Below, piece by piece: positions 3,002 through 61,827 of a stretch of DNA of 64,000 bases. Location: positions 96 through 64,095 of IMG/VR virus record IMGVR_UViG_2930414654_000002. One strand, 5' to 3'. The DNA comes from a virus (lineage: Duplodnaviria; Caudoviricetes). Positions within the stretch are counted from its first letter, which is position 1. Each line of letters begins with the position of its first letter. Position numbers and translations under genes: made by a program. The notes under the pieces were generated by a model, which saw only the letters and a list, made by a program, of their open reading frames with translations, searched no databases and was not told where the DNA came from.

Positions 3002-3430
3002 CTAGCGCAACTTTCCTTGCCGTTCGAGTTCCTCGAGGACCTGCTGCTTGAGCTTCCGGATCTCGGGGGCGGGGAGGTCGGTCGTGGCGACCGCCGCGTC
3101 CTGCACTGCCTGGCCGACCGCGTCTTTGAGGTCGTCGGGTTGCACGGGGGAGATGACGGAGCCGTCGGGGCCCGGCTCGATGGTCGTGGGGCTGCCGCCG
3201 CGCAGGATCTCCTGGCAGGAGCCGGCGGCCCAGCCGAGCGCTGGTTCGATCTTTCCGTAGGTGTTGTCGCGGACGGACTGTCCGGCTTCGACCTGGTTGT
3301 AGGTGTTGATGTTGAGGTCGGCGTCGCGGGCGACGTCGACCTTCGTCTTTCCCAGTTGCGTGCGGCGTAGGCGTACCTGCTCGGCCAGCCTCAGGCGGTG
3401 TTCCTTGGGTGTGGAGGGCATGCCCCGCAT
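3002..3430 (-). CDS. Immunity repressor, XRE-family HTH
   Basis: VRLRRTQLGKTKVDVARDADLNINTYNQVEAG HTH; divergent from cro-like gene. Confidence 0.85.
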   Translation of the reverse strand: MRGMPSTPKEHRLRLAEQVRLRRTQLGKTKVDVARDADLNINTYNQVEAGQSVRDNTYGKIEPALGWAAGSCQEILRGGSPTTIEPGPDGSVISPVQPDDLKDAVGQAVQDAAVATTDLPAPEIRKLKQQVLEELERQGKLR

Positions 3431-4251: not shown

Positions 4252-4878
4252 ATGACACCCACCGAACAGACACCGCTCACACCGGAGCGCGAGCGGGAGA
4301 TCCGCGACCGCCGCGAGGCCGTCACCGACACGCCGTGGGGCAGCTACCGCGACCTGGGCGGCGAGTACACCGTCGAGGCCGGTGCGACGATCACCCTCGA
4401 CGAGGGCTTCTCCTCCACCGGCATGGTCGCCCGCGTCTACGGCGACAGCGACGAGCAGCGCTACCGGCGGGCCGACTTCATCACCCAGGCGCCCACCGAC
4501 ATCGACCGCCTCCACACCGAGCTGGACCGGGTGCGCGCCGAGCTGCAGGGGGCGCGGGCCACTGTCACCGAGCTGACGGCCGCCCGTGACGCCGCCACCG
4601 CCGAGGCCGAGTCCCTGCGTAGCCAGCTCGCCGACGCCTACGGCAGCACGGCCGCCGAGTGGATGCAGACCCAGCAGCAGCTCATCACCACGCTGATGGC
4701 CCGCGTCGCCGAGCTGGAGGCCCGCCCGTCCCTGACGGCGGAGCAGGTCGCGGTCAAGGGCGCCGTGTACTGGGAGGTGCTGGCGCACCGCGACGACCCC
4801 GACCTGTCGTCCCGGATCGCCGCCGCCGTCACCAGCGCGCTCGCCGAGGTCCGGGCCGAGGCAGGTGACCGGCGATGA
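4252..4878 (+). CDS. Ead/Ea22-like coiled-coil early protein
   Basis: TPW...ADFITQAPTDIDRLHTELDRVRAEL motif. Confidence 0.55.
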   Translation: MTPTEQTPLTPEREREIRDRREAVTDTPWGSYRDLGGEYTVEAGATITLDEGFSSTGMVARVYGDSDEQRYRRADFITQAPTDIDRLHTELDRVRAELQGARATVTELTAARDAATAEAESLRSQLADAYGSTAAEWMQTQQQLITTLMARVAELEARPSLTAEQVAVKGAVYWEVLAHRDDPDLSSRIAAAVTSALAEVRAEAGDRR

Positions 4879-5150
4879 CGATGCCTTCCCCGTTCGAGCC
4901 GGACGCTTTCGACCGCATCACGGCCCGGCTGCCGCACCTGTCGGCGTGGCAGGCCGCCTGGAACCAGGCCGCCGACGATCTGGCCGACACCTCTGTCGTC
5001 GAGATCTACCCCGAGGACATCGGCCGGCTCGCCTGGGAGCTGCTGCCCGAGCAGGAGCGCGACGAAGCACTCGGCGCCCTCTTCTACTGCTGGTGGGCCG
5101 CCATGCAGAACGACCGCGAACAGCTCGCCACCGAGAGGGGCGACCGGTGA
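4875..5150 (+). CDS. Hypothetical phage protein
   Basis: ATGA-coupled ORF with typical codon bias. Confidence 0.65.
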   Translation: MTMPSPFEPDAFDRITARLPHLSAWQAAWNQAADDLADTSVVEIYPEDIGRLAWELLPEQERDEALGALFYCWWAAMQNDREQLATERGDR

Positions 5151-5413
5151 TGGCACTCACGATCCCCGCACCCGCACCGGAGGGCCACGAGCAGTGCAGC
5201 GGCTTCATCTCGGACGCTCCCCGCGCCCCGGGCCTGTGCGCTGTCTGTGGTGACTCCTGGGCCTGGCACCGCGCCGACGACGGCCGTCTCGCCGAGCAGA
5301 TGCACCAGCTCGACACCGCCGACGGTGCGTTCGCCGCACTCGCCGTCCAGCACCCCGACCGCTGCCACACCCCCGACGACTACAACGGCTGGACCCCCGG
5401 AGGAGCCGCATGA
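5150..5413 (+). CDS. Hypothetical phage protein (Cys/His)
   Basis: TGATG coupling; CAVCG motif. Confidence 0.6.
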   Translation: MALTIPAPAPEGHEQCSGFISDAPRAPGLCAVCGDSWAWHRADDGRLAEQMHQLDTADGAFAALAVQHPDRCHTPDDYNGWTPGGAA

Positions 5414-5745
5414 GCGCCCCGAAGCTTTCTGCCGGATGGAACAAGGTCTCCCTGCGCGAGGGCGGCGAGATGGCAGCCGAGGTGCTGCGTGAGGCCGCTG
5501 CCGAAGTCGTGGCGTTCTGCCCTGAGCACGGCGACCGCGACACCGTGCGGATGGCCTGCCACTGCGAGCTCGCCGACGAACTCCGCCGCAACGCCGCCGA
5601 AGTAGGTGAGACGGCGGGCGGAACGTGCGGGGCAAAGCTCACTCCCCGGAGCGGCACCCGGCCGTGCGTGCTCCCCGCCGGACACCCCGGACACCATCAG
5701 GACCAGCACACGAACACCTGGCCCAACTCGGGCGGCGCGTCATGA
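5410..5745 (+). CDS. Hypothetical phage protein
   Basis: GGAG RBS and ATGA coupling; CVLPAGHPGHH motif. Confidence 0.6.
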   Translation: MSAPKLSAGWNKVSLREGGEMAAEVLREAAAEVVAFCPEHGDRDTVRMACHCELADELRRNAAEVGETAGGTCGAKLTPRSGTRPCVLPAGHPGHHQDQHTNTWPNSGGAS

Positions 5746-6164
5746 GCCTCGAACTCCGCACGTACCGGACCGCACGCACCGCGAAGCGCTGCAACATGCA
5801 CCTCTGCCACACCCGAATCCAGCCCGGAGACCGGTACCTGCGCGCGTCGCTCCCGCCGCTGGTCGATCCCAACTCCAGCGAGCACTGGTGGTCGATGAAC
5901 GTCTGCACCGCATGCATGACCGACGAGGCGAAGGCCGCCGGGGTCCGGGCCGACGAGTTCAACGCCCGGTATCCCGTCGGTACCCGCGTCATCGCCTACC
6001 CCGGCGCCCGGCCGGAGGACGACGCCACCGCCACCCGCATCGACACGACGACCCGCAGCCGGGCCACCGTCCTCGGCGGCCACACCGCCGTCGTCTGGGT
6101 CCACGGCCACAGCGCCTGCATCGCCCTCACCCACATCGACGTGCTCCCTGGAGGTGCCGCATGA
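5742..6164 (+). CDS. Hypothetical phage protein (Zn-ribbon + FNARYPVGT domain)
   Basis: Coupled ORF; CxxxxC..CTAC. Confidence 0.65.
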   Translation: MSLELRTYRTARTAKRCNMHLCHTRIQPGDRYLRASLPPLVDPNSSEHWWSMNVCTACMTDEAKAAGVRADEFNARYPVGTRVIAYPGARPEDDATATRIDTTTRSRATVLGGHTAVVWVHGHSACIALTHIDVLPGGAA

Positions 6165-19804: not shown

Positions 19805-20125
19805 ATGAGCGAACAGCCGTGGACCATCGACACCATCGCCCACGCCCTGCCACACCCCGAGCTCCGTGCGACCTTCATGCGCGACGTCAACCTGACGCCA
19901 GTCGACCGACTCCCCGACGTCATCGCCCGATGGACACGCTTCGTCGAACAGTGGGAAGCCTCCAAGCTCGGACTCGATCAGATCCAGTCCTACATTCGGG
20001 ACCACGGCGAGCTCCCACCCGAGTACCGTGAGTCCCCCGAGGCCGAGGCCCACACCGACACGTTCCTAGAACAGCTCCGGGCCGACGCCGCAAACCGTCG
20101 GCAACATGGGAGCAACGCCGCGTGA
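19805..20125 (+). CDS. Putative antitoxin (DUF6247-like)
   Basis: WTIDTIAHALP..R..F..V....L..VIARW; overlaps a RelE-like gene. Confidence 0.55.
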   Translation: MSEQPWTIDTIAHALPHPELRATFMRDVNLTPVDRLPDVIARWTRFVEQWEASKLGLDQIQSYIRDHGELPPEYRESPEAEAHTDTFLEQLRADAANRRQHGSNAA

Positions 20126-20376
20126 CCTGGCGCGTGATCATTCCGACTGACATCCAGCAGCAGGTATGGGCACTCCCCGACGACGGACGCGACAGCGTGC
20201 TCAGCCTCATCGACGACCTACGGGCAGACCCCCACAACGCCACCCAGAAGCTCACCAGGTACGACGACGGCCCCGTCCACATGCGCACCGCCGCAAAGGA
20301 TCTGGTACTCGTCACCATCACCATCAACGACACCACCGGCGTCGTCACCTTCATGGAGCTCACCACCGCACACTGA
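20122..20376 (+). CDS. Putative RelE/ParE-fold toxin
   Basis: WRVII....QQVWALP...IDDLRADP...LVLVTI.D.TGVVT layout; 84 aa. Confidence 0.55.
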   Translation: MTWRVIIPTDIQQQVWALPDDGRDSVLSLIDDLRADPHNATQKLTRYDDGPVHMRTAAKDLVLVTITINDTTGVVTFMELTTAH

Positions 20377-20387
20377 CCCACACGAAA

Positions 20388-20416
20388 GCCCCCGGCCGCA
20401 ACCCGCGGCCGGGGGC
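20388..20416. terminator. Hairpin between convergent operons
   Basis: GCCCCCGGCCGC-AACCC-GCGGCCGGGGGC. Confidence 0.7.
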
Positions 20417-20455: not shown

Positions 20456-20929
20456 CTACTCCGCCTCGACCCAGTGCGCAGGACGGCTAGACACTCGCGT
20501 CTCACGGATGCAGATCCATTCAGCCCGACTGCGAGGCTTGCTGTTGTGCACGATGTTGTGTTGCGGCCGTTCTACCCTGATGGCGTGCGCCTCCACGGCT
20601 CGCGCTTCTGCTTGGCTGTCGCACCATTCGAGGCACAGGGTGGCGACCTCCGGCCACCATTTCTTGCTCTGTGCATGCTGTACCCAACGCTGCGGGGGCT
20701 TGGTGCTGATGCCGACATAGAGAAGCTGGTCATCACTGTCGCGGAGCCTGTACACCGCAGTACGGACGTCATCGCCCCGCGCTGCCGCCTCTTGCTTGGC
20801 GGCTTTCCTCCATGAGGTGTCCTCTTTGGGCTGTACGGCGTACCAGGTGTTTGGGTCATCCTCGATTTCAAAGGGGCCGAGGACAACGTAGTCGGTCATC
20901 TCCGAAGCGATGGGGTCGTCGATGCTCAT
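20456..20929 (-). CDS. GIY-YIG nuclease family protein
   Basis: AVYRL...LLYVGIS..P.QRWVQH...EAHAI...P.HN. Confidence 0.85.
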   Translation of the reverse strand: MSIDDPIASEMTDYVVLGPFEIEDDPNTWYAVQPKEDTSWRKAAKQEAAARGDDVRTAVYRLRDSDDQLLYVGISTKPPQRWVQHAQSKKWWPEVATLCLEWCDSQAEARAVEAHAIRVERPQHNIVHNSKPRSRAEWICIRETRVSSRPAHWVEAE

Positions 20930-22419
20930 CGTCCCTCCCCGTAGCTCCAGCGGCTCCCGGTGCCCCGATACTCAGATACCGGGATGGGCTCGACGCTCGG
21001 CCGCATGCGGGCCCGGTAGAGCATGCCGTGCAGGTGGTCGACTTCGTGGGCGACGAGCCGGGCCACGCCTCGCTCGAAGATCGTGATGCGCTTCTGGCCG
21101 TCGATGCCGGTGTGCTCGACGCTGACCGACAGGGGCCGGGGCACCATGCCACGCACGTCGAAAAAGCTCAGGCAGCCTTCGTACTGCTCGTCCGTCTCCT
21201 GCGACTCCTCGACGTACCGCGGATTCAGCAGCGTGATGCTCTCGCCGTCGGGGGTGCGGACGATGGCGGCAGCCCGGTCGATGCCGATCTGCGGGGCGGC
21301 GATGCCCATGCCCTTGCCGAAGTTGTGCACCGTGGATGCGCGCTCAGTCGCGGACACGAGCTCGGCGATGACGCGGCGGGCGTCCTCGGCCTCGTCAGGC
21401 AGGGTGAACTCGCGCGCCGTCTTCGTCAGGATCGGGTCGCCCTCCTGGACGATGCCGATCTCCTGCATGCGGTCGCTGGGCCTCACGGCGGTCACGTCCG
21501 TGGTGATCTCCTCCTCTGGTTGACTGCGGAACTTCCATTCGAGCCTGTAGCGGGCATGCAACGGCGGGTCCTCCGTCGACCACGAGAAGACGCGCCGGCC
21601 GTCCTCGTCGGTGCGACGGATCGCGGTACGGAACGGCATCGCCGTCGCTGTCATGGTGGTCTCGGTGCCCCACACGGTCGGGGCGAGATCGGCGGGGAAG
21701 TCCAGCCGGACGCTGAGCCGGCGGGTCGGGAGCCTCACGGCCCGCTGGAACCAGGATCCCCACTTGTCGTCGCCGACCGTGTAGCTGTACTCCAGCCACG
21801 CCGCCTCGCCCGGGTAGAGCGGGTAGCGGCCGTGCTCGTTCTCCAGCAGCAGCCACAGTTCCTTGAACGCGTCCCGGTCGTGCCGCACCGTCCACGTCAA
21901 CGGCTCACCGTCGATGCTGGCGCTGAGGTCGATCTCTCCCCAGGTCAGCGGGTTCTCCCGATAGTGCTGATTGGAGCGCTCCGGGTTGCCGGGGTAGCGG
22001 TCGACGGAGATGCGGATCAGGTACTGGGTGATCGGATCCGGGCTGTCGTTGTACAGGCGGCGGCGCTGCGTGGCCCGGTACGTCGACCCGTCGTAGAACA
22101 GGGCGGTGTCCTCGTGCTCGACGATGAGGCTCGCCTCGTGCGGTGCCCCGTGGTCCGGACCCGAATGCTGGGCGGGAACGGGCCGGCCCTGCGCTTCCAG
22201 CTCGCGGTAGGCGTGCACGATGGCACCACCAGCCCGGAGCACCGTGTCCGTCTGGCGGGCGAAGGACTCCGACGGTCGCTGGGTGCCGCCCTCGACCTTC
22301 GAGACGTAGGACGGCGTGTAGCCCACCGCCTGGGCGAGCTTCGACTGCGAGAAGCCTCGCACGTCCCGCCAGTACTTCAGCTCGGCGACGAAGTCGATGC
22401 CTTGCTGCCTTTCAGGCAT
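20926..22419 (-). CDS. XRE HTH - beta-rich domain - peptide deformylase fusion
   Basis: N-terminal HTH (SQSKLAQAVGYTPSYVSKVE); PDF motifs GMGIAAPQIG, EGCLS and HEVDH all intact. Confidence 0.9.
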   Translation of the reverse strand: MPERQQGIDFVAELKYWRDVRGFSQSKLAQAVGYTPSYVSKVEGGTQRPSESFARQTDTVLRAGGAIVHAYRELEAQGRPVPAQHSGPDHGAPHEASLIVEHEDTALFYDGSTYRATQRRRLYNDSPDPITQYLIRISVDRYPGNPERSNQHYRENPLTWGEIDLSASIDGEPLTWTVRHDRDAFKELWLLLENEHGRYPLYPGEAAWLEYSYTVGDDKWGSWFQRAVRLPTRRLSVRLDFPADLAPTVWGTETTMTATAMPFRTAIRRTDEDGRRVFSWSTEDPPLHARYRLEWKFRSQPEEEITTDVTAVRPSDRMQEIGIVQEGDPILTKTAREFTLPDEAEDARRVIAELVSATERASTVHNFGKGMGIAAPQIGIDRAAAIVRTPDGESITLLNPRYVEESQETDEQYEGCLSFFDVRGMVPRPLSVSVEHTGIDGQKRITIFERGVARLVAHEVDHLHGMLYRARMRPSVEPIPVSEYRGTGSRWSYGEGR

Positions 22420-22533
22420 GGGTCCCCCTGTGCCTGTGCGTGATCTATGAGTGAGTGCTGCTCACGGTGTCCTCATGTGTGCGCTCCGCGATTACCTCAA
22501 GGCATGACGGACGACGACATGAGCCAGTACGAA

Positions 22534-22806
22534 TCAGTCGGACGCCTGGGTGCTGCGCACGGTCTTACTGCGCAGCGGAGGGACGCCGGCCTGGATGCCG
22601 ATACGCCGGATGTGATTCCGATCGTAAGGACTGTGCGCCGCGATCTTCCCGGGGGCGGCGTTGCGCTCCATGAGGTGCTTGACGATCCCAGCTTGGAGAG
22701 CTTGGCGGGCCCGGTCGAAGGACTCTTCGGCCTCCCTGTAGGTGGCGGTCAGCTTGTCGAGCTCCGTCAGGGCTGCCGCTTCCCGCTCTCTCTCCTCGCT
22801 CGTCAT
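22534..22806 (-). CDS. Small HTH-like repressor divergent from the transfer operon (Kor-like position)
   Basis: MTSEERE...APGKIAAHSPYDRNHIRRIG. Confidence 0.6.
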   Translation of the reverse strand: MTSEEREREAAALTELDKLTATYREAEESFDRARQALQAGIVKHLMERNAAPGKIAAHSPYDRNHIRRIGIQAGVPPLRSKTVRSTQASD

Positions 22807-23003
22807 GACGGCATGTTGCCACACGTGGCAGCAGCCGTCCGGGTTCGGTCTCGGGAATCTTCCTCGAAGGACTTGCGCCTGCTTCGTCATGTTGCAACTA
22901 TAGGTGTCATCGCGGCGGAACAACAGGCCACGAAAAAAGCCCCGTCCGGTGCGCCAACACCGAACGGGGCGAGGAAGCCCCTTATCGCAGAAGGAGCAAC
23001 CCC

Positions 23004-23405
23004 ATGAGCAGCAGTGTAGCCACGTCCGCCCCCGCCAGCTCGGGGGACCACCCCCGCCAGGCCGTCGCCTACGTCCGCGGTCAGCGTGTGATCGTCGACT
23101 GTCCGGCGTGGTGCACCGTCGTGCATGCCGCCCGGGACGAGTACTTCCTGGAGGACGTCTCCCACTCGTCCGACTCCCTGTCGGTTTCGGCGCCGGTGGG
23201 CGTGAGCCGCCGGGAGGACGTTCTGGTCGGGCACATCGCCGAGTGGTCGTTCGCCGGCGAGTCCCGCCCGAGGTTCGCGTTCGACGCGACGGGCTCCGGC
23301 GAGTTCTCCGAGCTGTCCAAGCACCAGGCGCGCGCCGAGCTGGACCGGATCGCCGCCCACGTCGAGCACCTGCGCCGCGTCGTCGACGCCATGCCCAGCG
23401 CCTGA
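23004..23405 (+). CDS. Hypothetical protein (DUF6907-like)
   Basis: AAGGAG RBS; CPAWC...H...DVSH. Confidence 0.7.
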   Translation: MSSSVATSAPASSGDHPRQAVAYVRGQRVIVDCPAWCTVVHAARDEYFLEDVSHSSDSLSVSAPVGVSRREDVLVGHIAEWSFAGESRPRFAFDATGSGEFSELSKHQARAELDRIAAHVEHLRRVVDAMPSA

Positions 23406-23486
23406 TCTCACTCTCACCCCGTAGCGGCCCCGGCCGTGCGACCCAACCGCCGGCCGGGGCCTTGATCCCCCATGGAGGGACCCGCA

Positions 23487-23795
23487 ATGAATCCTGTCAC
23501 GACCCTGTCCTCGTCTCCCGTCTCCCTGTCCGACGGCGACGCCGCCACGGTTTCGGACCTGTCCGCCCACCGCCGGGCCGCCGTGTCGGTGGCGGACGCG
23601 AATGCGGCCTACCGTGCGGAGTTGGTGACGGACTACATCGCCGCGCGTCGGACGGGGGTGTGGTTCGACGAGCTGCGGCTGCTGGCGGAGGCCCGCCGCT
23701 ACGACGTGGCCAACCCGGACGACTCGGTGCCGCTGTTCGACGAGCTGCACGCCATCGAGCTGTTCGGCGCCCAGCCGGCGGGGGTGGCGGCGTGA
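23487..23795 (+). CDS. Hypothetical protein
   Basis: GGAGG RBS; ORF in the transfer operon. Confidence 0.6.
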   Translation: MNPVTTLSSSPVSLSDGDAATVSDLSAHRRAAVSVADANAAYRAELVTDYIAARRTGVWFDELRLLAEARRYDVANPDDSVPLFDELHAIELFGAQPAGVAA

Positions 23796-24037
23796 GTGCC
23801 TGGCCGGCGGGGCTGGTGGCCCGCTATCTGACGGTGGGTGGGGCGGCGGTGGATCTGTTCGGCCCCGACCCGGTCAACAACTTCGGCGGCCCGTGCGGCG
23901 GCTGCGGGCAGCAGGTGTCGAACCGTCGGTCGGACCCGGACAGCCCGCAGGCGGGTCTCGCGGACGCCCGCGGTGAGGCGCAGGCCCACGCCAAGCAGTG
24001 CCGCGCGGTGCCGCAGCCCGAGGCGGGTGGTCGGTGA
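23792..24037 (+). CDS. Small Zn-binding protein
   Basis: ARYLTVGGA.V...CGGCG...AQAHAKQCRAVP. Confidence 0.65.
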   Translation: MSAWPAGLVARYLTVGGAAVDLFGPDPVNNFGGPCGGCGQQVSNRRSDPDSPQAGLADARGEAQAHAKQCRAVPQPEAGGR

Positions 24038-24354
24038 TGCGGGCTGTTGTGGCGACGGTGGTCGTGTGGCTGCTGTCTCTGGCCGAGTTCTTCGTCTCGT
24101 GGGCTGTGGCTGCCGGTCTGGCGTCGTTCCTGTTCACGCAGGGTGTCGGGTTTTTGCCCGCGTTTCTGCTGGCGACGGGCGCCGGTGTGGTGGCCCTGTT
24201 CGTGGCTGACGAGTTCGTGTGGCCGGGCCGGTCGCGTCCGCTGGCGGATGTGGCGGCGGAGTGGGCTGACCGTGTCGCCGACTGGGGTGGCCTCGACTGG
24301 ATCGACGCCGACCCCTCCGAGCAGCAGCCTTCCCGGTCCGATTCGCGGGGCTGA
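24037..24354 (+). CDS. Small membrane protein (Spd-like)
   Basis: Two to three hydrophobic segments. Confidence 0.6.
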   Translation: MRAVVATVVVWLLSLAEFFVSWAVAAGLASFLFTQGVGFLPAFLLATGAGVVALFVADEFVWPGRSRPLADVAAEWADRVADWGGLDWIDADPSEQQPSRSDSRG

Positions 24355-24444
24355 CGGCTGCCCGATCCGCCCGGCACACCCCCAGTCGGGCGGTGAGGGG
24401 AGCCGGCCAGACCGGCCGGACCACCACTAGGGAGGGAAGACGAG

Positions 24445-24612
24445 ATGGCTTCTAACGAGCTGGCAGACCGCGTGGTGACGCTGATGGAGCGGCTGCAGCG
24501 GATGGGTCGTTCCGAGCAGGAGATCAGGGCCGCGGTCGAGGAGGAGCTGGCCCCGCACAGCCGGGGTGAGACCGCGGTCGCCCTGAAGGCCCTGGAGAAG
24601 AACAGCCGCTGA
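24445..24612 (+). CDS. Small hypothetical protein (55 aa)
   Basis: GGGAGG RBS; MASNELADRVVTLMERLQRMG... Confidence 0.55.
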   Translation: MASNELADRVVTLMERLQRMGRSEQEIRAAVEEELAPHSRGETAVALKALEKNSR

Positions 24613-24699
24613 CCGGCTGTCCGCGGGTGCCCGGCACGAGGTCCGGGCGCCCAAGGAGAACCGGCCAAGCACCCCACCCCTGAGTTTTGGAAGGACGTC

Positions 24700-24918
24700 A
24701 TGAACATCTCGATGTTGATCGCGGCGACGAGGGCGCGTCTCGCGCTGCTGATCGCGGGTCTGGCCTGGTTCGTCGGGCTGGACGCCCCCGCCCCGGTACG
24801 GCTCGCCATCGCCGGCCTCGTCGTCATGGCCCTCGTGTTCGACGGGGCCATCGACGAAGGCCGCATCCGCACCGATGCCGCCAGCAAGCACCAGAACCGA
24901 CCGCACTCAACTGTCTGA
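24700..24918 (+). CDS. Small two-TM protein (Spd-like)
   Basis: AAGGA RBS; hydrophobic. Confidence 0.6.
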   Translation: MNISMLIAATRARLALLIAGLAWFVGLDAPAPVRLAIAGLVVMALVFDGAIDEGRIRTDAASKHQNRPHSTV

Positions 24919-24936
24919 CCGGAAGGAGGCTGACCG

Positions 24937-26229
24937 ATGTCTACCGCTACCGAGCACGTCAACGGCTACGAGCGCCAAGCCGCCGATCCGGTGGAGCAGG
25001 CGAAGGCGGACGCGATCCGATCCAAGTCCTACGCCGAGTCCGAAGCCCTGCGCATCGAGGCCGAGGGCAAGGCCAAGGCCGCCGAGATCGTCGCCAAGGA
25101 GGAGGCGGAGAAGCAGCGCCTCGCCAACGAGCGGGCCCGGCTGAAGCTGGAGAAGGACCAGGCCGCGCACGACCGGCACATGGCCGAGCAGCAGCGCAAG
25201 GCCGCTGAGGAGCGGGCCGCGAAGGACAAGGCCGAGCGGCAGGAAGCCGAGGAGGCGCAGCAAGAGGCTGACCGTGCCGCGGAGCAGCAGCGCAGCGAGA
25301 GGTACTGGAAGTGGGGGGCCCGCGGAATCTACGCCGTCGGTCTGATCATCGCCGCGCCGGTGCAGTTCCTGCACTTCTGGGACCCCGAGAGGCCGTTCCT
25401 CATCGCCGCGCCCGGCCTGCTGGAGGGTTTCGCTCTGGTCCTCGCGTGCGGCGCCGCGTGGGCGGTGGCCCACAAGCGCGACGTGGCCCCGTACCGGGTG
25501 GGCATCATGCTCGGTGCGCTGATCGCCGCCGCCATCAACCTGTACGGCGGTATGGCCGACGCGCGGATCGGTTTCAACGCGGGCCTGATCGGCGCCATCG
25601 CCTCGCTGGGTGGGCCGATCGTGCTGATGGCCTACGAGCATGGCATCGCGCAGAAAGCCGACGGCATTCCCTCGTTCCGGGAGCGGCGCGCGACGGAGAA
25701 GGCGGAGAAGGCCGCCGCGAAGGATCGGGAGCGGGCGAAGGCCGAGAAACGCGCCGCCGAGGAGAAGTCTGCGGCGGAGCGGCTCGACCAGAAGCGGCGT
25801 GCAGAGGTCGAGCAGGAACGCCGCGACAGCGACCGTCAGCGTCGGCACCCGGACGTGTGGGAGGTAGCAGAGTCGCTGCGTTCGGCCCGCGGTGAGGCGG
25901 TCGTCACCGAAGCCATCTGGAGCGAGGCGTGGTACGTCGTCACCGGCTCGAAGAGGGTCGGCTACACCACCGAGATTGAGGCGACGGCGCGTGCTGCGCA
26001 GGCCCGAATGAAGACGGTCACGGAGATGCCGATAGAGGGCGAGTTCTCCCTGATCACTTCCCAAAAGGCTGCCCGCTCGAAGAAGGCTCCTGACGCGCCC
26101 GACGGGCGCCGCTTCAACGGCGGCACACCGCCTCGCCGGACCCCCGGGGACACGCAGCCGTACAGCGCTGGGGCGAAGAAGCAGGCGGCCATCGAGCAGG
26201 CCAAGCCGGCTGCCGCCGACGGTAAGTGA
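24937..26229 (+). CDS. SpdB/DUF2637-like coiled-coil multi-TM spread protein
   Basis: Coiled coil, about four TM helices, then a coiled coil; directly upstream of the FtsK-like gene. Confidence 0.65.
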   Translation: MSTATEHVNGYERQAADPVEQAKADAIRSKSYAESEALRIEAEGKAKAAEIVAKEEAEKQRLANERARLKLEKDQAAHDRHMAEQQRKAAEERAAKDKAERQEAEEAQQEADRAAEQQRSERYWKWGARGIYAVGLIIAAPVQFLHFWDPERPFLIAAPGLLEGFALVLACGAAWAVAHKRDVAPYRVGIMLGALIAAAINLYGGMADARIGFNAGLIGAIASLGGPIVLMAYEHGIAQKADGIPSFRERRATEKAEKAAAKDRERAKAEKRAAEEKSAAERLDQKRRAEVEQERRDSDRQRRHPDVWEVAESLRSARGEAVVTEAIWSEAWYVVTGSKRVGYTTEIEATARAAQARMKTVTEMPIEGEFSLITSQKAARSKKAPDAPDGRRFNGGTPPRRTPGDTQPYSAGAKKQAAIEQAKPAAADGK

Positions 26230-26243
26230 GAGGACCCGACGAG

Positions 26244-28367
26244 ATGAGTATCGACACCACTGTGCGGGTCCCCGCCGACGCCGCCGAGGCAGCCACCGAC
26301 CGGCCTCCGCTGGCCCTCGTGAAGGACACCCCGGCTCCGTTTGAGGGGACGGTGGTCGAGCATCAGGGGCAGTCGGTGCGGCCGGCGTGGATCGAGTCGG
26401 GTGCGGCGCTCGCCGCCCGCGCCCGGCAGCACGCCGCAGACAACCGCCTGTACGTCGGGTGGACGGTGCGTGGCTACCGGCAGCTCGGCCGCCGCTGGCT
26501 GGACGCCCGCCGCGACGACTACCCGCAGATGATCGCCTCCGCCAAGGCAGAGCTGAAGGCGGCGTCGGGGGATGTGTCGGCCGAGGACTCGGCCCGCCGC
26601 AGCCTCACCGAGCGCCGCGCCGCATACCGGCTCCACAAGCGCTGGCACTGGATCAAGACCGGCGGCTGGGGGACCGCGGGCGCTACTGGTCTCGCCACCG
26701 GCGTCGTCACCGGAGGACTCTGGGTCGACCTGGCCCTCACCATCGGCACCTTCGTCGTCGGTGCAGTGAACGGACGGCCGACCCCGCCCGCCCCCGAGCC
26801 CACCAGGGGCGAGGTCGGCCCGTCCCAGGCGCCGCGGGAAGCGAGCCAGCTCGGCGAGGAAACCATGCGCCGCGCCCTCGTCGAAGCGGGCATCGTCCCC
26901 GAACGGCGCGCCGACGAGATCACCGGCGTCGGCCTGCCCCGCACCGAAGGCCCCGGCACCGCCTACACCGCGGAACTCCCCGCCGGTATCCCCGCCACGG
27001 CCGCCCTGACCAAGGCCGAACAGCTCGCCTCCGCCCTCGGCGTCCATCGGGACTGGATGGACCTCGACGTCGACCGGGGCGAAGGCTCCAACGCCTCACG
27101 CCTGAAGATCTGGGTGTCCGACCAGAACCCCTTCGACGTCGTGCGCCCCTCGCCGCTCCTGCAGCACCGCGGGCCGACCGACACCTGGCACACCGGGATC
27201 CCCGTCTCGTTCGGCAAGCGCGGCAACCCGATCTCCTTCCACATTCGCGACACGTCTCTCCTCGTCGGAGGCGCCACCCGCCGCGGCAAAGGCATGTTCC
27301 TCGCCAACCTCCTCATCGGGGCAGCCAAGGACCCGTGGGTCAACATCCGCGTCTTCGACGGCAAGGGCACCGCCGAGCACAACCCGTTCGCTCCGCTGCT
27401 GGCAACGTTCGTCAAGCGCGACCCCGAGCGCCTCGCCGTGTTCCTCCGCGGCGTGCTCGACGACCTGGACCGGCGGTCCGACATCCTCGACCAGCACAAC
27501 CTCGAGAAGATCGACGATGAGCACTACGGCGAGCTGATGCGCCTCCTCGGCGGCATCGAGCTGCTCGTCATCGACGAACTCGCCACCTACACGCCCAAGG
27601 GCACCAGCAAGTGGGCCGACGAGATCACCGAGAACCTGGCGCAGATCGCCGCCGTCGCTGCCGCGCTCGGCATCATCCTCATCGACCTCACCCAGGTGCC
27701 CGAGGTGGATGTGGTCCGCGGCCGGCTTCGGCAGAACCACGTCGGCCGGGCCGCGGTGAAGACCGAGTCTGGTAGTGCCTCGAACACGATCCTCGGCGAC
27801 GGCATGACTGGGGAGGGGTACAACGCGGCCAGCATCCCCATCAACCAGCCCGGCCGGCACTGGCTGTCCACCCCGGAGACTGGCGTTGTAGATGCCCGCT
27901 CCTTCCTGGTGAAGCCGGAGGAGAAGCGTGTGGCCGCGGCCGAGGCGATCGAGCTGCGGCGTGAGGCGGGACGACTGCCGGGTCAGTGGCACGACCCGAT
28001 CGAGGCATACCTGATGCGAGAGACGGGCGTGTCGTCGGCTGCCGGCGGCGAGCGCGGCAACGGCCGCATCAGCCGGGTGACGGTGCTGGAGCGGCTGGAG
28101 ATGCTGGCGAAGGCGACCGGCCGCGGGTCGGTCACCAACGGAGAGGTGATCTCTGCGTTCGCTGTGCACGAGCCGTCGAAGTACGCCCGCCGCGACGGGG
28201 AGTCCGACCGGGCCTACGCGACCCGCGCCGGGAAGCTCGTCAAGGACGCGCTCGACGCGGCCGGTGTCGAGCTGGAGACCCGCCGAGTGCCGTCCCCGGA
28301 CGGCGGGGAGCGGTCGACGGGCTACACCCTCGACGACATCGTCCAGGCCGGTCAGAGCGCGAAATGA
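26244..28367 (+). CDS. traB: TraB-like FtsK/SpoIIIE DNA translocase
   Basis: N-terminal TM pair, Walker A LLVGGATRRGKG, VFDGKG, Walker B LLVIDE, LTQ.P, C-terminal wHTH-like tail. Confidence 0.85.
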   Translation: MSIDTTVRVPADAAEAATDRPPLALVKDTPAPFEGTVVEHQGQSVRPAWIESGAALAARARQHAADNRLYVGWTVRGYRQLGRRWLDARRDDYPQMIASAKAELKAASGDVSAEDSARRSLTERRAAYRLHKRWHWIKTGGWGTAGATGLATGVVTGGLWVDLALTIGTFVVGAVNGRPTPPAPEPTRGEVGPSQAPREASQLGEETMRRALVEAGIVPERRADEITGVGLPRTEGPGTAYTAELPAGIPATAALTKAEQLASALGVHRDWMDLDVDRGEGSNASRLKIWVSDQNPFDVVRPSPLLQHRGPTDTWHTGIPVSFGKRGNPISFHIRDTSLLVGGATRRGKGMFLANLLIGAAKDPWVNIRVFDGKGTAEHNPFAPLLATFVKRDPERLAVFLRGVLDDLDRRSDILDQHNLEKIDDEHYGELMRLLGGIELLVIDELATYTPKGTSKWADEITENLAQIAAVAAALGIILIDLTQVPEVDVVRGRLRQNHVGRAAVKTESGSASNTILGDGMTGEGYNAASIPINQPGRHWLSTPETGVVDARSFLVKPEEKRVAAAEAIELRREAGRLPGQWHDPIEAYLMRETGVSSAAGGERGNGRISRVTVLERLEMLAKATGRGSVTNGEVISAFAVHEPSKYARRDGESDRAYATRAGKLVKDALDAAGVELETRRVPSPDGGERSTGYTLDDIVQAGQSAK

Positions 28368-28530
28368 GGTCCGACAGAGGTACGTCGCCGACGGGATCGC
28401 CGCAGGTCGCAGGTCTGACACAGGTCCGACAGTCGCTGTCGGGAGCGCAGTCCTCGGACAGTCCGTGACGTACCTCTGACTGACCTCCCACCTGCACTTA
28501 TCCCCCCACTGTCGTACCTCTCGACGTACC
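28367..28530. repeat. clt-like repeat cluster downstream of traB
   Basis: AGGTC(C/T)GACA at 28367, 28411, 28422; 12-bp inverted pair CAGAGGTACGTC (28375) / GACGTACCTCTG (28467); further CGTACC copies at ~28513 and ~28525. Confidence 0.6.
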
Positions 28531-28583
28531 ACAATGCCCGAAAGATCCACATATGCACCATCTGCCGAACAGGAGACTCGATC

Positions 28584-29144
28584 ATGGGAATGTCCCGCGC
28601 GGACCGCCGCACATGGGCCGACGCCCGCACCGTCGCAGACCTCGGCCACCTCATGGCCCGCTGGCTGGAGGGCGACCTCAAATCGTGGCCCGGCAACGAA
28701 GCCGGCTACGGCCCCGACGAGGAAACCCGCCCGCTCGTGTCGCCTCTGGCTGCCGCCAACCGGGCCGGGTTCCTCACCACCTGCTCGCAGCCCGGGACGG
28801 ATGGCGCCGGCTACGACGGAGCCCGCTGGAGGCAGCGCGCCGCCGTCGAGGGGTTCGTCGCCGACCCGGACATGCTGCAGCGCGTGAGGCGCGCCGCCCA
28901 GCGGCACGGACTCCGGGCCACGACAGGCGGCCAGTGGACTGTCGTCACCGACCGCAACGGCGAGCCGATCACCGTGTTCGGTCAGCGTGTTGACGGTCGG
29001 GTCCTGCGCAGCATGTGGCACGGCATCCACCGAACCGCCTACCGGGCCGTCGGCGACGCCCAGCCCGTCGCCGTCGTCCACCCGGTGTGGGGGCCGTCCG
29101 GCACCGGACCGCTGCAGAAGTTCCTCGCCGAGGTGGCCCGATGA
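28584..29144 (+). CDS. Hypothetical protein (DUF6919-like)
   Basis: AGGAG RBS; LAAANRAGFLTTCSQPG...QRAAVEGF. Confidence 0.7.
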   Translation: MGMSRADRRTWADARTVADLGHLMARWLEGDLKSWPGNEAGYGPDEETRPLVSPLAAANRAGFLTTCSQPGTDGAGYDGARWRQRAAVEGFVADPDMLQRVRRAAQRHGLRATTGGQWTVVTDRNGEPITVFGQRVDGRVLRSMWHGIHRTAYRAVGDAQPVAVVHPVWGPSGTGPLQKFLAEVAR

Positions 29145-45824: not shown

Positions 45825-48800
45825 GTGGCCATCTCCGTCGGATCCGTCGAGGTCGATGTCATCCCCAACACCAAGGGGATCTACAACCACCTCAAGTCAG
45901 CCTTGGTGCCCGCCGCGGCGAAAGCCGGAGAGGACGCGGGCAAGGCGGCCGGGCGTAGCTTCGGGCCGGCGATGCAGTCCGAGGTGGGGCAGGTCGGCCT
46001 GCAGATCGGGCAGCAGATCGGCGCGCAGATCGCCGCCCGCATCACCGCCGAGATCCGCGGTGCGCTGCGGGACGGTGTCACCCAGGGCGGGCGGACTGCC
46101 CGCCCGGCGGCGGCGAAGCAGGGCGAGCAGGCGGGCGGGGCGTTCGCGAGGAGCGCCCGCGCCCGCATCGAGGCCGCGTTCCGGTCGCTGCCCGACGTCA
46201 CCGTCGGCGCTGACACGTCCGAGGCAGACTCCGACCTGCAGGCCCTGCGGGCCCGCATGGAGACCCTCGCGGGCAAGCGCATCGGCGTCGACATCGACAC
46301 GGGCGAGGCCCGCGCCGAAATCACAGAGCTGGAGGATCAACTGCGGCGGCTGGGCGCCGCTCACCCCAACCCGACTGTGCGGGCCGACACGGCCGCGGCG
46401 CGGGCACAGCTCGCCGAGGTGCGTGCCGAGCTGGACCGGATCTCGGCGGACCGCACCACGATCCGCCTGGAGGCCGACGGCACGTTCGGGCAGCGGCTTC
46501 GTGCCGCGGTGCAGCAGGCAGAATCGTCCCTCCCCAACATCAACATTGGGGCGGACACCACCCCCGCGCAGGGCGAGATCGCTAGCCTGCGGGCCCAGTT
46601 GACGGCGCTGCGGGACGTGCGGGTCGGCGTCGATATCGACGCGGCCACCGCCCAGGCGAAAATCACCGAACTGCAGGGCCGACTGGAGCGGCTTTCCGCC
46701 TCGGACGCGGACGTGGCGGTGCGGGTGGACGCGGCTGCTGCCGCGACGCAGCTCGCCGCCGTGCAGGCCATGGTGAACCGTCTCGACGGTCAGACGGCGC
46801 GGGTGCGGGTGGACACGTCCGCCGCGGTGCGGGCCCTCATTCAACTGTCGATCGCGGTGGGTGGCGTCGCTGTCCTGCCCGCTGTGCCCGCCCTGGCGGC
46901 GGGCCTCGGCGCGGTCACCGCGGCGGCCACCGTCGCGGCGGCCGGTGTGGGTGCTCTGGCCGCGGTCGCGGTGCCCGCGGTGAAGGACATCGCCGGTGCG
47001 CTGCAGGCGCAGAAGGCGGCGCAGGAGGCGGCGTCGCGGGCGACCGCGTCCGGCGGGCAGGCGTCTGCGCAGGCGGCCCGGCATGCCCTGACGCAGGCGA
47101 GCGCCCAGCAAGCGCTGGCTGCGGCGGAGCGGAACGGGGCCCGGCAGATCGCGCAGGCCCAGCGGCAGGTGCGTCAGGCCCGGCAGGCTGCCGCGGACGC
47201 GGCGGCGACCGCGGCGCAGCGGCAGGAGGCGGCTGCCCGTGCGGTGCAGGATGCGGAGCGGGCATTGTCGTCGGCTCAGCGTGATGCCCGGCAGGCGCAG
47301 CAGGATCTGACGGATGCGCGCCGTGAGGCGGCCCGCGAGCTGGAGGATCTGAACGCACGGTTGGCTGGGGCACAGCTCTCTCAGCGGGATGCGGTGCTGA
47401 GTGTGCGGGAGGCGCAGGTTTCGCTGGCCCGCACGATGAAGGATGCGGGGTCCAGCGAGCTGGATCGTGCTCGTGCGCAGCTCGCCTACGACCAGGCGGT
47501 GCAGCGCCTCAAGGACCAGACGGTTGAGACGAAGCGACTGAAGGCGGAGACCGCGGCGGCGAACAAGGCCGGGGTCTCGGGTAGCGACACGGTGCGGTCG
47601 GCTCAGCAGCGGCTGGCGTCGACGCAGCAGCAGGTGGCCGACCGGGCGCGCGGGGTGCGGGACGCGCAGGTGGAGGCGGCCCGCGCGCAGACGCAGGCGG
47701 CGCGGGATGTGGCTGCCGCGCAGGAGCGGGTGGGTGAGGCCACCCGGAACGTGGCGGTGGCGCAGCAGTCGGCTGCGGATGCGGTGTCGAGTGCGCAGCG
47801 GCAGATCCGGTCGGCTGAGCTGTCGGCGGCGGGTGGCGCGGATCAGGCTGCTGCCGCACAGGCGAAATACCGGGCGGCGTTGGCGAAGATGACGCCGGCG
47901 ACGCGGGGCACGTTCAACGCGTTCGTGTCGCTCCGGAAGGCTTTCACCGCCTGGTCGCGGAGCTTGCAGCCGGCTGTGATGCCGATCTTCACGCGGGCCC
48001 TGAACGGGATGAAGAACAGCCTGCCGGGCCTGACGCCGCTGGTACTGGCGGCGGCCCGCGGCATCAAGACACTCCAGGACCGGGTGTCGGCCGGCTTCAA
48101 GTCCCCTTGGTGGAAGAGCTTCAAGAAGGACGTGCAGGGCAGTGTCGAGCCTGCGGTCGTCAGCCTCGGCGTCAGCTTCGGCCGGATCTTCAAGGGCATG
48201 GCCGGGATCGTCCAAGCGTTCCTGCCGCACATGGACTCCATCTCCGAGCGGATGGAGTCGATCACCGGCCGGTTCGCGAACTGGGGCACCGGGCTGAAGG
48301 GCTCGCCTGAGTTCGAACGCTTCCTGGACTACGCGGCGAAGTTCGGACCGAAACTCGCGTCGACCCTGGGCGACCTGGGGCGGGCGTTCCTCGACGTGTC
48401 GCAGGCGCTGATCCCTCTGCAGGGCCCGGTCCTCGATGTGCTGGGCGCGCTGGCCCGGGGTATCGCGTCGATCGCAACGACCCTGCCGTGGCTGATCCAG
48501 CTCATGTACGCGGCGCTGATCGTGACGCGGCTGTGGACGATCGGCATGGTCATCTTCAACGCGGTCATGCAAGCGAACCCGATCACGTTGATCATCCTGG
48601 GGATCATCGCGCTCGTCGCGATTGTCGTCTACGCCTACAAGCGTTGGGGCTGGTTCCGGACCGCTGTGCAGGCGGCGTGGGAGGGCATCAAGACCGCGGC
48701 CCTGTGGGCGTGGAACGTGGTGCTGAAGCCGGTTTTCAATGCGCTGGTCGTCGCGATCCGCTGGGTCGCGAAGATCGCCGTGTGGCTGTGGCACAACGTG

Positions 48801-61772: not shown

Positions 61773-61827
61773 GGTGCCTCCAGGGTGAGGCCCCCGACCG
61801 GGCGGTCGGGGGCTGTGAGTGATGCGG

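Follow-up and report, generated by a model that had tools for sequence, protein, structure and literature searches.

The stretch of DNA described here (the window) comprises 64,000 nucleotides (nt) of the IMG/VR provirus record IMGVR_UViG_2930414654_000002, positions 96 to 64,095. Our subject is a minus-strand gene at 20926-22419 whose 497-amino-acid (aa) product joins a helix-turn-helix (HTH) domain, an all-beta middle domain and a peptide deformylase (PDF) domain, as read from the open reading frame (ORF), Pfam, alignment and a structure model, together with the GIY-YIG nuclease gene that abuts it. The fusion gene is single-copy in the record. Phage genes of the window include an integrase (1211-2587), a YqaJ exonuclease, a D12 methyltransferase, a DnaB-type helicase, portal, capsid and terminase-like genes and one gene of tape-measure size. 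The fusion gene lies in a minus-strand cassette with plus-strand phage genes on both sides, which runs, in order: a terminator-like hairpin at 22939-22970 (14-bp stem, then a T run); a 90-aa ORF at 22534-22806, with its ATG at 22806 (phrog_34713, expectation value (E) 7.5e-23; no function assigned); a 114-nt leader at 22420-22533; the fusion gene; the 157-aa GIY-YIG gene at 20456-20929, whose start overlaps the fusion stop as ATGA; and a strong terminator-like hairpin at 20388-20416 (13-bp stem, 12 G-C pairs). Three such hairpins were observed in the region scanned, against 0.8 expected, and the one at 22939-22970 is predicted to insulate the cassette from minus-strand transcription further upstream. 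An earlier note on this DNA had noticed the ATGA overlap and had described the pair as antisense and moron-like; the overlap is there in the sequence, and the flanking hairpins and a leader of its own support a self-contained cassette of this kind. By eye only, a TATAGT box resembling a -10 element can be seen ~95 nt 5' of the 90-aa ORF, homologues of which also lie upstream of the fusion in four other loci (L002, L005, L007 and L012). A scan for sigma-70-type promoters between 20300 and 23100 gave 0 sites, as expected for a high-G+C organism and so uninformative. Comparison of the window ends for attL/attR gave nothing beyond a 16-nt low-complexity match, and no tRNA genes were found in the window.

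Using Pfam, two domains were identified in the fusion protein, HTH_31 (residues 10-67, E 7.3e-11, 42.7 bits against a cut-off of 27) and Pep_deformylase (PF01327; residues 323-474, E 1.2e-31, 109.8 bits against a cut-off of 22.8), with no match for residues ~95-315. The AlphaFold model of the full-length protein (mean predicted local distance difference test (pLDDT) 82, predicted template-modelling score (pTM) 0.48) has an XRE-type HTH of five helices at residues 10-76 (22192-22392; pLDDT 82-93), a disordered linker at 78-96, the beta domain at 98-297 (21529-22128; delimited by conservation and predicted fold, and without a Pfam or NCBIfam model), a second short linker, and the PDF domain at 314-484 (20968-21480). 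The relative placement of these domains is not predicted, since the pTM is low. G+C content at third codon positions (GC3) is even across the three of them, at 0.87, 0.92 and 0.91. The three PDF motifs are invariant in all 27 family members aligned for conservation (about 51-95% identity): GxGxAAPQ at 370-377, EGC(L/W)S at 414-418, with L or W at position 417, and HExDH at 458-462. After the domain comes a conserved C-terminal tail, PIPVxEYRGTGxxWxY. The PDF part can be superposed on experimentally determined PDF structures, actinonin complexes among them (Foldseek E 2e-12; template-modelling score (TM) 0.82-0.88 normalised to the target), its closest sequence matches are type II deformylases (2okl_A, E 1.3e-18), and it shows 31-41% identity to the other PDFs of the same genomes. 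The deformylase is predicted to be catalytically intact.

The beta domain is the best-conserved part of the fusion, with the blocks HDRDAFKE, PLYPG, KWGxWFQRAVRLPT and DPPLHARYRLEW and dozens of invariant residues across the 27 aligned members. A Foldseek search with the full-length model returned PDFs only, masking this domain, which was then folded alone with a diverse alignment; the result is all-beta, with a pLDDT of 90.9 and a pTM of 0.86. The earlier note's anatomy of an HTH, some 200 residues of beta-rich sequence and a deformylase is thus upheld, through Pfam, the invariant motifs and the ORF map for the whole and through structure prediction for the middle. Foldseek matched the separately folded domain to LTA4 hydrolase (1sqm), aminopeptidase N (6oiu), ERAP1 and a two-domain M1 peptidase of Deinococcus (6iff), with E ~3e-7, probability 1.00, TM 0.43-0.54, 6-12% identity and a root-mean-square deviation of 5-9 Å; an oligosaccharyltransferase subunit and two putative protease/binding proteins were also matched. 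The part of the M1 enzymes concerned is, we presume from their known architecture, the N-terminal beta domain, which in M1 peptidases directly precedes and packs on the HEXXH catalytic domain. The modelled fold may be like that of the M1 zinc aminopeptidase accessory domain, and the parallel is suggestive: in both cases an all-beta domain of ~200 aa would stand directly N-terminal to a HEXXH catalytic domain, though here the catalytic partner has a different fold and the M1_N Pfam profile does not match the beta domain. A phmmer search of the domain against the PDB gave only a chance-level match (E 0.31) and no solved sequence relative, the BFVD viral structure library only weak giant-virus M1-like matches, and the ESM Atlas only unnamed actinobacterial clusters.

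A profile-free search of 1.84 billion representatives placed the beta domain in 358 clusters, 115 of them at E <= 1e-30, and most of these clusters are HTH-beta proteins of ~300-350 aa or fusions of ~500 aa. Ten of the longer matching proteins were scanned with Pfam. Trypsin_2 was present in two, P0224 and P0208, the latter reading Trypsin_2 + beta + PDF; four carry a calcineurin-like phosphoesterase and one a weak nSTAND3 match along with an inositol monophosphatase, while of the rest one has a weak PDF match only and two are without a Pfam domain. By eye, the members P0247 and P0250 have hydrophobic N-terminal stretches resembling membrane anchors.

The family is large. Of 8,000 candidates scored in a word-indexed search, 1,892 proteins reached E <= 0.001. 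The best 120 of the 1,892 are all full-length (485-524 aa, 66-95% identity, with PF01327 and PF13560), which puts the number of full-length protein clusters at 120 or more; these 120 belong to Streptomyces, Kitasatospora, Streptacidiphilus and some other actinomycetes and are annotated in their sources as 'peptide deformylase' only. The fused form was also found on 11 IMG/VR viral contigs, which are 38-79 kb long. Among 50,697 sequenced phage records no full-length match was found, 103 of them matching the PDF part only, all at <60% identity. In 301 evenly drawn Streptomyces genomes, surveyed at a match threshold of E <= 1e-30, a match was found in 56 and the whole module (HTH-beta plus PDF) in 39; 17 of the 56 have module-type PDF-part or partial matches only. 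An independent search with the divergent HTH-beta protein P0162 recovered the same 39 genomes plus two HTH-only partial matches. The 301 genomes contain 15 fused loci, six at >=70% identity to the window's fusion and nine at ~54%. One of the six (L021, in G279:C3) is a pseudogene, with a TGG-to-TGA change at the invariant W189 (KEL*LL), and intact fused copies are present in 14 of the 301 genomes. Since they occur in two divergent classes, at >=70% and ~54%, the fused ORF is not an assembly accident. In-frame TGA codons had been flagged in seven of the nine ~54% copies; these are the terminal or an upstream stop, and the idea of a split or read-through form based on them was dropped.

A true two-gene form exists in 25 split loci, where the HTH-beta part (~324 aa) and then the PDF part (~189 aa) are encoded by separate ORFs in different frames. 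The second ORF follows the first directly in 24 of these loci, the remaining case (G096) having a partial PDF match on the opposite strand. The junction is a GTGA stop/start overlap after a GGGGAG Shine-Dalgarno sequence, and the two genes are predicted to be translationally coupled; in the fused form these segments are continuous, in frame, through 'VRPS(D/E)xM'. A fused and a split copy coexist in one genome. Where the same two partners occur both joined and separate without a change of order, the classic interpretation is that they function together. The earlier note had taken separate translation of the PDF domain from an internal start as a point against the fusion. Separate translation does occur, as a natural two-gene form, and strengthens the functional link between the parts; an internal PDF start may also exist within the fused gene. 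Outside Streptomyces, fused copies were found at three loci (L099, L100 and L101), or two without L099, which is in the unpublished genome G537, and in a phylum-wide sample the beta domain occurs in 6 of 401 genomes, one of them G001 itself and another with a fragment only (L103). The module, an HTH, a beta domain and an apparently intact deformylase, is on these counts widespread in actinobacteria and, as far as the literature was searched, undescribed: a full-text search found no description of an HTH-deformylase fusion or of the fusion's beta domain. Term searches of the main text of a 2025 survey of accessory PDFs turned up a def-fmt fusion only and no HTH-PDF fusion (PMC12690207).

That the protein is simply an accessory deformylase, with N-terminal domains that contribute nothing to regulation and were acquired by an accident of gene fusion, would agree with its label of 'peptide deformylase' in the sources. 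It would also agree with the module-type PDF matches, present in 17 of the 56 genomes, that lack a detected HTH-beta part. Conservation is strong, however, in both the HTH and the beta domain, with dozens of invariant residues in the latter; the split form keeps its partner and order in 24 of 25 loci; and a leader element is conserved as well. We regard this explanation as very improbable.

The leader element just mentioned lies immediately 5' of the fusion start, at 22447-22465, and takes the form GTGAG-N5-CTCAC / TCACTCA. The GTGAG-N5-CTCAC part (22451-22465) is the sole exact match in the window, which alone is not significant (1 found, 0.16 expected, with 16 of 100 shuffles reaching one). 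For comparison, the 140 nt before the HTH were collected from 41 loci, drawn from all three classes and without removal of duplicates (L008 and L020, for instance, are the same place). Of these 41 leaders, 40 contain the core CACTCA, which has 61 copies in 5,740 nt of leader against 75 in 808,884 nt of locus background counted on both strands, an enrichment of ~118-fold. The aligned consensus is TGA..(N)..TCACTCAC..TCA, ~35-50 nt before the start. Because the upstream genes differ between the classes, the element belongs to the module. We infer from its position and conservation that it is a candidate operator of the module's own HTH, which would make the module autoregulated.

Elsewhere in the prophage the element is at chance level: TCACTCAY is found twice against 2.8 expected, the second copy being at 61815. 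This lack of extra copies beyond chance argues against a phage master repressor role. The candidacy of the fusion as master repressor of the prophage was ranked low for that reason and because a separate HTH_31 gene stands beside the integrase; the latter, 142 aa long (phrog_37057; 3002-3430, minus strand), adjoins the integrase gene (phrog_1, also minus strand) and is likely to encode the prophage repressor. Homologues of this 142-aa gene are found convergent and directly after the fusion gene in two loci (L003 and L110). The same facts bear on the possibility that the fusion is an induction sensor, repressing phage genes until PDF inhibitors occupy its pocket and inactivate it, whereupon the prophage would escape a poisoned host. 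In its favour, PDF inhibitors, actinonin included, induce certain prophages, among them one of Vibrio, by a route independent of SOS, with no sensor named in the available part of that report (10.1101/2025.06.06.656871), the module is common in Streptomyces proviruses, and Streptomyces species make actinonin, according to the main text of the survey (PMC12690207). The chance-level distribution of the element, the separate repressor candidate at 3002-3430 and the occurrence of the module outside prophages, by glycosyltransferase or ketosynthase genes, all count against it, and we consider it improbable.

Our best explanation of the module, still a tentative one though the one we would put first, is that it is an autoregulated accessory deformylase of the trigger-enzyme kind, carried as lysogeny cargo together with a passenger gene resembling a homing endonuclease. 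The HTH would bind the module's own leader and repress the cassette. The beta-PDF pair would be an active deformylase that handles or senses N-formyl peptides or deformylase inhibitors; occupancy of its pocket by either would relieve repression, and output would rise when deformylation is compromised. The prophage copy would then be cargo expressed in lysogeny, protecting the lysogen against natural deformylase inhibitors from neighbouring actinomycetes. The sequences show the anatomy, its conservation, the fused and split forms, the leader element, the limits of the cassette and its contexts; leader binding by the HTH, enzyme activity, the response to ligand and the benefit to the lysogen are all things that we infer. 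The one-component regulator built around a deformylase that the earlier note had proposed is compatible with the data and close to this reading. Bifunctional enzyme-repressors such as PutA and BirA, known as 'trigger enzymes', couple a DNA-binding domain to an active enzyme so that the state of the substrate sets their own expression. Like them, the fusion has a predicted DNA-binding domain and a predicted enzyme in one polypeptide; unlike theirs, its enzyme is a translation-associated deformylase. The literature searched describes no trigger-enzyme-type regulator built on a deformylase.

Peptide deformylase is an essential enzyme of translation and an antibiotic target, and accessory PDFs on mobile elements and prophage induction by PDF inhibitors have only recently come into view. 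Mobile elements often carry accessory PDFs, and these reduce actinonin susceptibility, according to the main text of the survey (PMC12690207). The module resembles these (Vibrio Def2 and integron cassettes, from the same main text) and the phage PDFs (cyanophage S-SSM7, 3uwa) in being a divergent second PDF, of the same fold and with intact motifs, on a mobile element. It differs from both in that they are stand-alone proteins of ~150-190 aa, whereas the deformylase here is fused or coupled to HTH-beta and has a conserved leader of its own. The module is a concrete candidate for coupling deformylation to gene control in inhibitor-making actinomycetes or their prophages.

Several observations weigh against an autoregulated accessory deformylase. 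A protein that is tethered to DNA and autoregulated, and so probably scarce, would be an odd supply of an enzyme that acts on most nascent chains. The full-length model, with its pTM of 0.48, has no confident packing between domains. The PDF part falls below both NCBIfam PDF equivalog cut-offs (TIGR00079, 85.3 against 103.95; NF001159, 97.3 against 125), and by equivalog score it would belong to a divergent subfamily, not to housekeeping-type def. The beta domain is not specific to PDFs, occurring also with phosphoesterases and a STAND NTPase, a pattern commoner in conflict systems. Two loci, L102 and L104, have HTH-beta genes without a PDF within 1.5 kb, so the beta-PDF link is strong and not universal. 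Finally, nuclease genes behind the fusion (described below) are commoner than one would expect of a simple passenger: they occur in 10 of 22 prophage-type loci, with nine of the ten starting <=30 nt from the fusion stop, which could mean function.

The nearest described architecture is the Xre HTH-COG2856 class, whose modules occur on mobile elements and are fused in more than half of cases and split otherwise, as the available part of the source has it (PMC2701414). The resemblance to its members (ImmR/ImmA of ICEBs1, IrrE/DdrO and CapH/CapP; same part of PMC2701414) extends to an XRE HTH with a HEXXH metallohydrolase, fused or adjacent, on mobile elements and, for our module by prediction, self-regulating; the differences are that the hydrolase here is a PDF, not a COG2856/M78 peptidase, and that an extra beta domain stands between the parts. 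A switch of the ImmR/ImmA or IrrE kind, in which a signal-activated HEXXH domain, here the PDF, would cleave the HTH repressor, its own or a partner's, and derepress the targets, would suit this class of fused or split mobile modules, the match of the HTH to the PADLOC capH model (E 6.8e-7) and the disordered linker at 78-96 between the HTH and the remainder. We nevertheless give it little chance: the domain is a bona fide PDF with all three formyl-methionine-specific motifs invariant, and no COG2856/M78-type Zn peptidase was matched in the fusion by Pfam or NCBIfam. Nor are PDFs known as endopeptidases.

The 157-aa protein encoded behind the fusion has a GIY-YIG domain (PF01541) at residues 58-122 (E 4.6e-10, 40.1 bits against a cut-off of 22.6), and it matches phrog_16880 (E 1.7e-20) and phrog_3312 'endonuclease'; Pfam recognised no DNA-binding domain in it. 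For a census of this position, 111 loci were de-duplicated at 98% identity to 66, some of the split loci having ~900 nt downstream, enough for an abutting gene. A slot nuclease was defined as a gene of a nuclease superfamily on the same strand that starts -30 to +311 nt from the fusion stop. Ten of the 22 distinct prophage-type loci (those at >=70%) have one: GIY-YIG in four (the window, L002, where it comes with a GntR domain, L005 and L006), MUG113/T5orf172 in five (L007, L106, L109, L112 and L113) and HNH (HNH_3) in one (L012). Among the other 15 fused loci a nuclease gene follows in one, on the opposite strand, and none follows the 29 split or partial loci; in L115 a GIY-YIG gene is convergent. 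The coupling to a GIY-YIG gene on which the earlier note had laid stress therefore holds in 4 of 22 prophage-type loci, the window among them, and fails for most homologues, an outcome that the note itself had named as counting against its idea.

All ten slot ORFs are intact, and five of the nuclease copies (L002, L006, L007, L106 and L109) have a C-terminal HTH, GntR or other. In all seven pairs measured, GC3 is lower in the nuclease (0.74-0.84) than in the adjacent middle and PDF parts (0.86-0.93), the window's own GIY-YIG gene having 0.74 against 0.91 for the fusion. Between the window and L002 the nucleases are 44% identical where the middle and PDF parts are 91% identical, and between the window and L005 the figures are 41% and 81%. 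Because the families are swapped, GC3 is lower and divergence is far greater than in the fusion, an optional mobile passenger fits better than an obligate effector, and the GIY-YIG gene is best read, on sequence grounds, as one of several interchangeable, optional genes resembling homing endonucleases that occupy a slot in phage-borne copies of the module. T4-like phages have free-standing homing endonuclease genes, among them the GIY-YIG seg and HNH mob genes. The slot nucleases, of GIY-YIG, HNH or GIY-YIG-clan type, are like these in being small, sporadic beside a conserved gene, foreign in composition, swapped between phages and often provided with an added DNA-binding domain, and the window's copy is unlike them in having no recognised DNA-binding domain. 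The MUG113/T5orf172 proteins are not established as homing enzymes.

The 45% frequency and the tight overlap lead us to keep a functional pairing of nuclease and fusion as a rival. It would be a sensor-nuclease pair for defence or abortive infection, the fusion monitoring translation or deformylation and releasing or activating a swappable nuclease (GIY-YIG, MUG113/T5orf172 or HNH). For such a pair speak the same-strand nucleases in 10 of 22 prophage-type loci, nine of them starting <=30 nt from the stop, the single terminator shared by fusion and nuclease in the window, and the patchy, mobile-element-linked distribution of the module. The beta domain, moreover, is also fused to Trypsin_2, Metallophos and nSTAND3, domains that are common in conflict systems, and in L010, from Nocardiopsis flavescens, a fusion 53% identical to the window's is followed not by a nuclease but by the gene for a 514-aa AAA_21 (AbiEii-like) ATPase (4409-5953). 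An effector should not be dispensable, however, and 12 of the 22 prophage-type loci do without the nuclease, as do 14 of the remaining 15 fused loci and all 29 that are split or partial; the lower GC3 of the nucleases and their 41-44% identity where the fusions are 81-91% identical also argue against an obligate pair. Matches of the fusion in PADLOC-DB 2.0 are confined to the HTH (HTH_VI and RmrA, besides capH), no defence protein model matching its other parts, and the GIY-YIG protein has only a weak match to a candidate family, PDC-S14 (E 5.8e-5). We think the pair unlikely.

A bolder version would make the HTH-beta-PDF protein a direct receptor of deformylation status, its pocket reading N-formyl peptides or inhibitors of the actinonin class, switching transcription and, in the phage copies, arming the abutting nuclease; the beta domain would then be a new family of sensors or adaptors shared with protease, phosphoesterase and STAND-NTPase conflict proteins. 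This seems to us distinctly unlikely. If it were true, Streptomyces prophages and islands would have a dedicated sense for translation poisoning or phage takeover. The beta domain, with its 358 representative clusters, is in any case a recurrent companion of proteases, phosphoesterases and a STAND NTPase. Should the module turn out to be no more than a resistance gene under its own control, it would add to the known enzyme-repressors, and a hotspot for homing-endonuclease-like genes in Streptomyces phages would be documented along with it.

The module is found in dissimilar surroundings, namely prophages, other mobile elements and chromosomal islands. The fused class at >=70% sits among small phage-type genes, and several of its loci share with the window neighbours such as DUF6907, DUF6919, an FtsK/SpoIIIE-like ATPase, a 430-aa coiled-coil protein, phrog_1467 and a DnaB-type helicase. 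The split class has as neighbours glycosyltransferases, an AAA_33 kinase, a MobA/VirD2-type relaxase and sometimes a DnaB-like helicase, and the ~54% fused class, in 3-4 loci, has AMP-binding/carrier protein genes, ketosynthases and a deoxyribosyltransferase-like gene. The module alone is common to all of these neighbourhoods and so behaves as an autonomous unit. The last of them would suit a peptide-processing enzyme, in which the beta domain would cover the PDF pocket, as its counterpart does in M1 aminopeptidases. The substrates would be free N-formyl peptides, either signals or natural products, and the HTH would link their deformylation to expression of the module or its neighbours. Such an enzyme would also accord with the apparent resemblance of the beta fold to the M1 accessory domain and with the existence of the Trypsin_2 + beta + PDF architecture (P0208), as well as with the AMP-binding/carrier and ketosynthase genes at the 3-4 loci. 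The neighbourhoods are not conserved between classes, though, and the similarity of fold is only middling, with a TM near 0.5 at 6-12% identity; we assign this explanation a low probability.

Upstream of the cassette, on the plus strand of the window, lie genes for DUF6907 (23004-23405), the 430-aa coiled-coil/membrane-like protein (24937-26229), a 713-aa FtsK/SpoIIIE-family ATPase (26226-28367) and DUF6919 (28584-29144). Homologues of this block (23004-29144) accompany the fusion in ten loci (L003, L005, L007, L008, L012 and L109-L113); it has the look of a conjugation-like DNA-translocase block inside a tailed prophage. On the other side of the cassette, two small plus-strand ORFs of 106 and 84 aa with a 4-nt overlap (19805-20376) converge on the GIY-YIG gene and share its hairpin at 20388-20416. 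The layout of the pair is like that of a toxin-antitoxin system. No Pfam, PHROG or PADLOC match was found for it, and homologues are near the fusion in eight loci (L003, L006, L011, L013 and L111-L114).

Other genes were seen 3' of the fusion or its nuclease. One viral contig (L108:3599-5254) has an IS605-family OrfB/TnpB gene, with a Cas12f-like TNB domain, ~250 nt 3' of the fusion, and NUDIX hydrolase genes lie a few hundred bases 3' of the fusion or nuclease in two loci (L004:12136-12642 and L006:11905-12375). In one genome, a 9.6-Mb contig has identical module-type PDF-only matches close to each of its ends and in opposite orientation (G297:C1:22190-22750 and 9620113-9620673); they are probably in the terminal inverted repeats of a linear chromosome. 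In the window itself, the 1661-aa protein of tape-measure size (45825-50810, plus strand) has a weak NlpC/P60 match near residue 1354.

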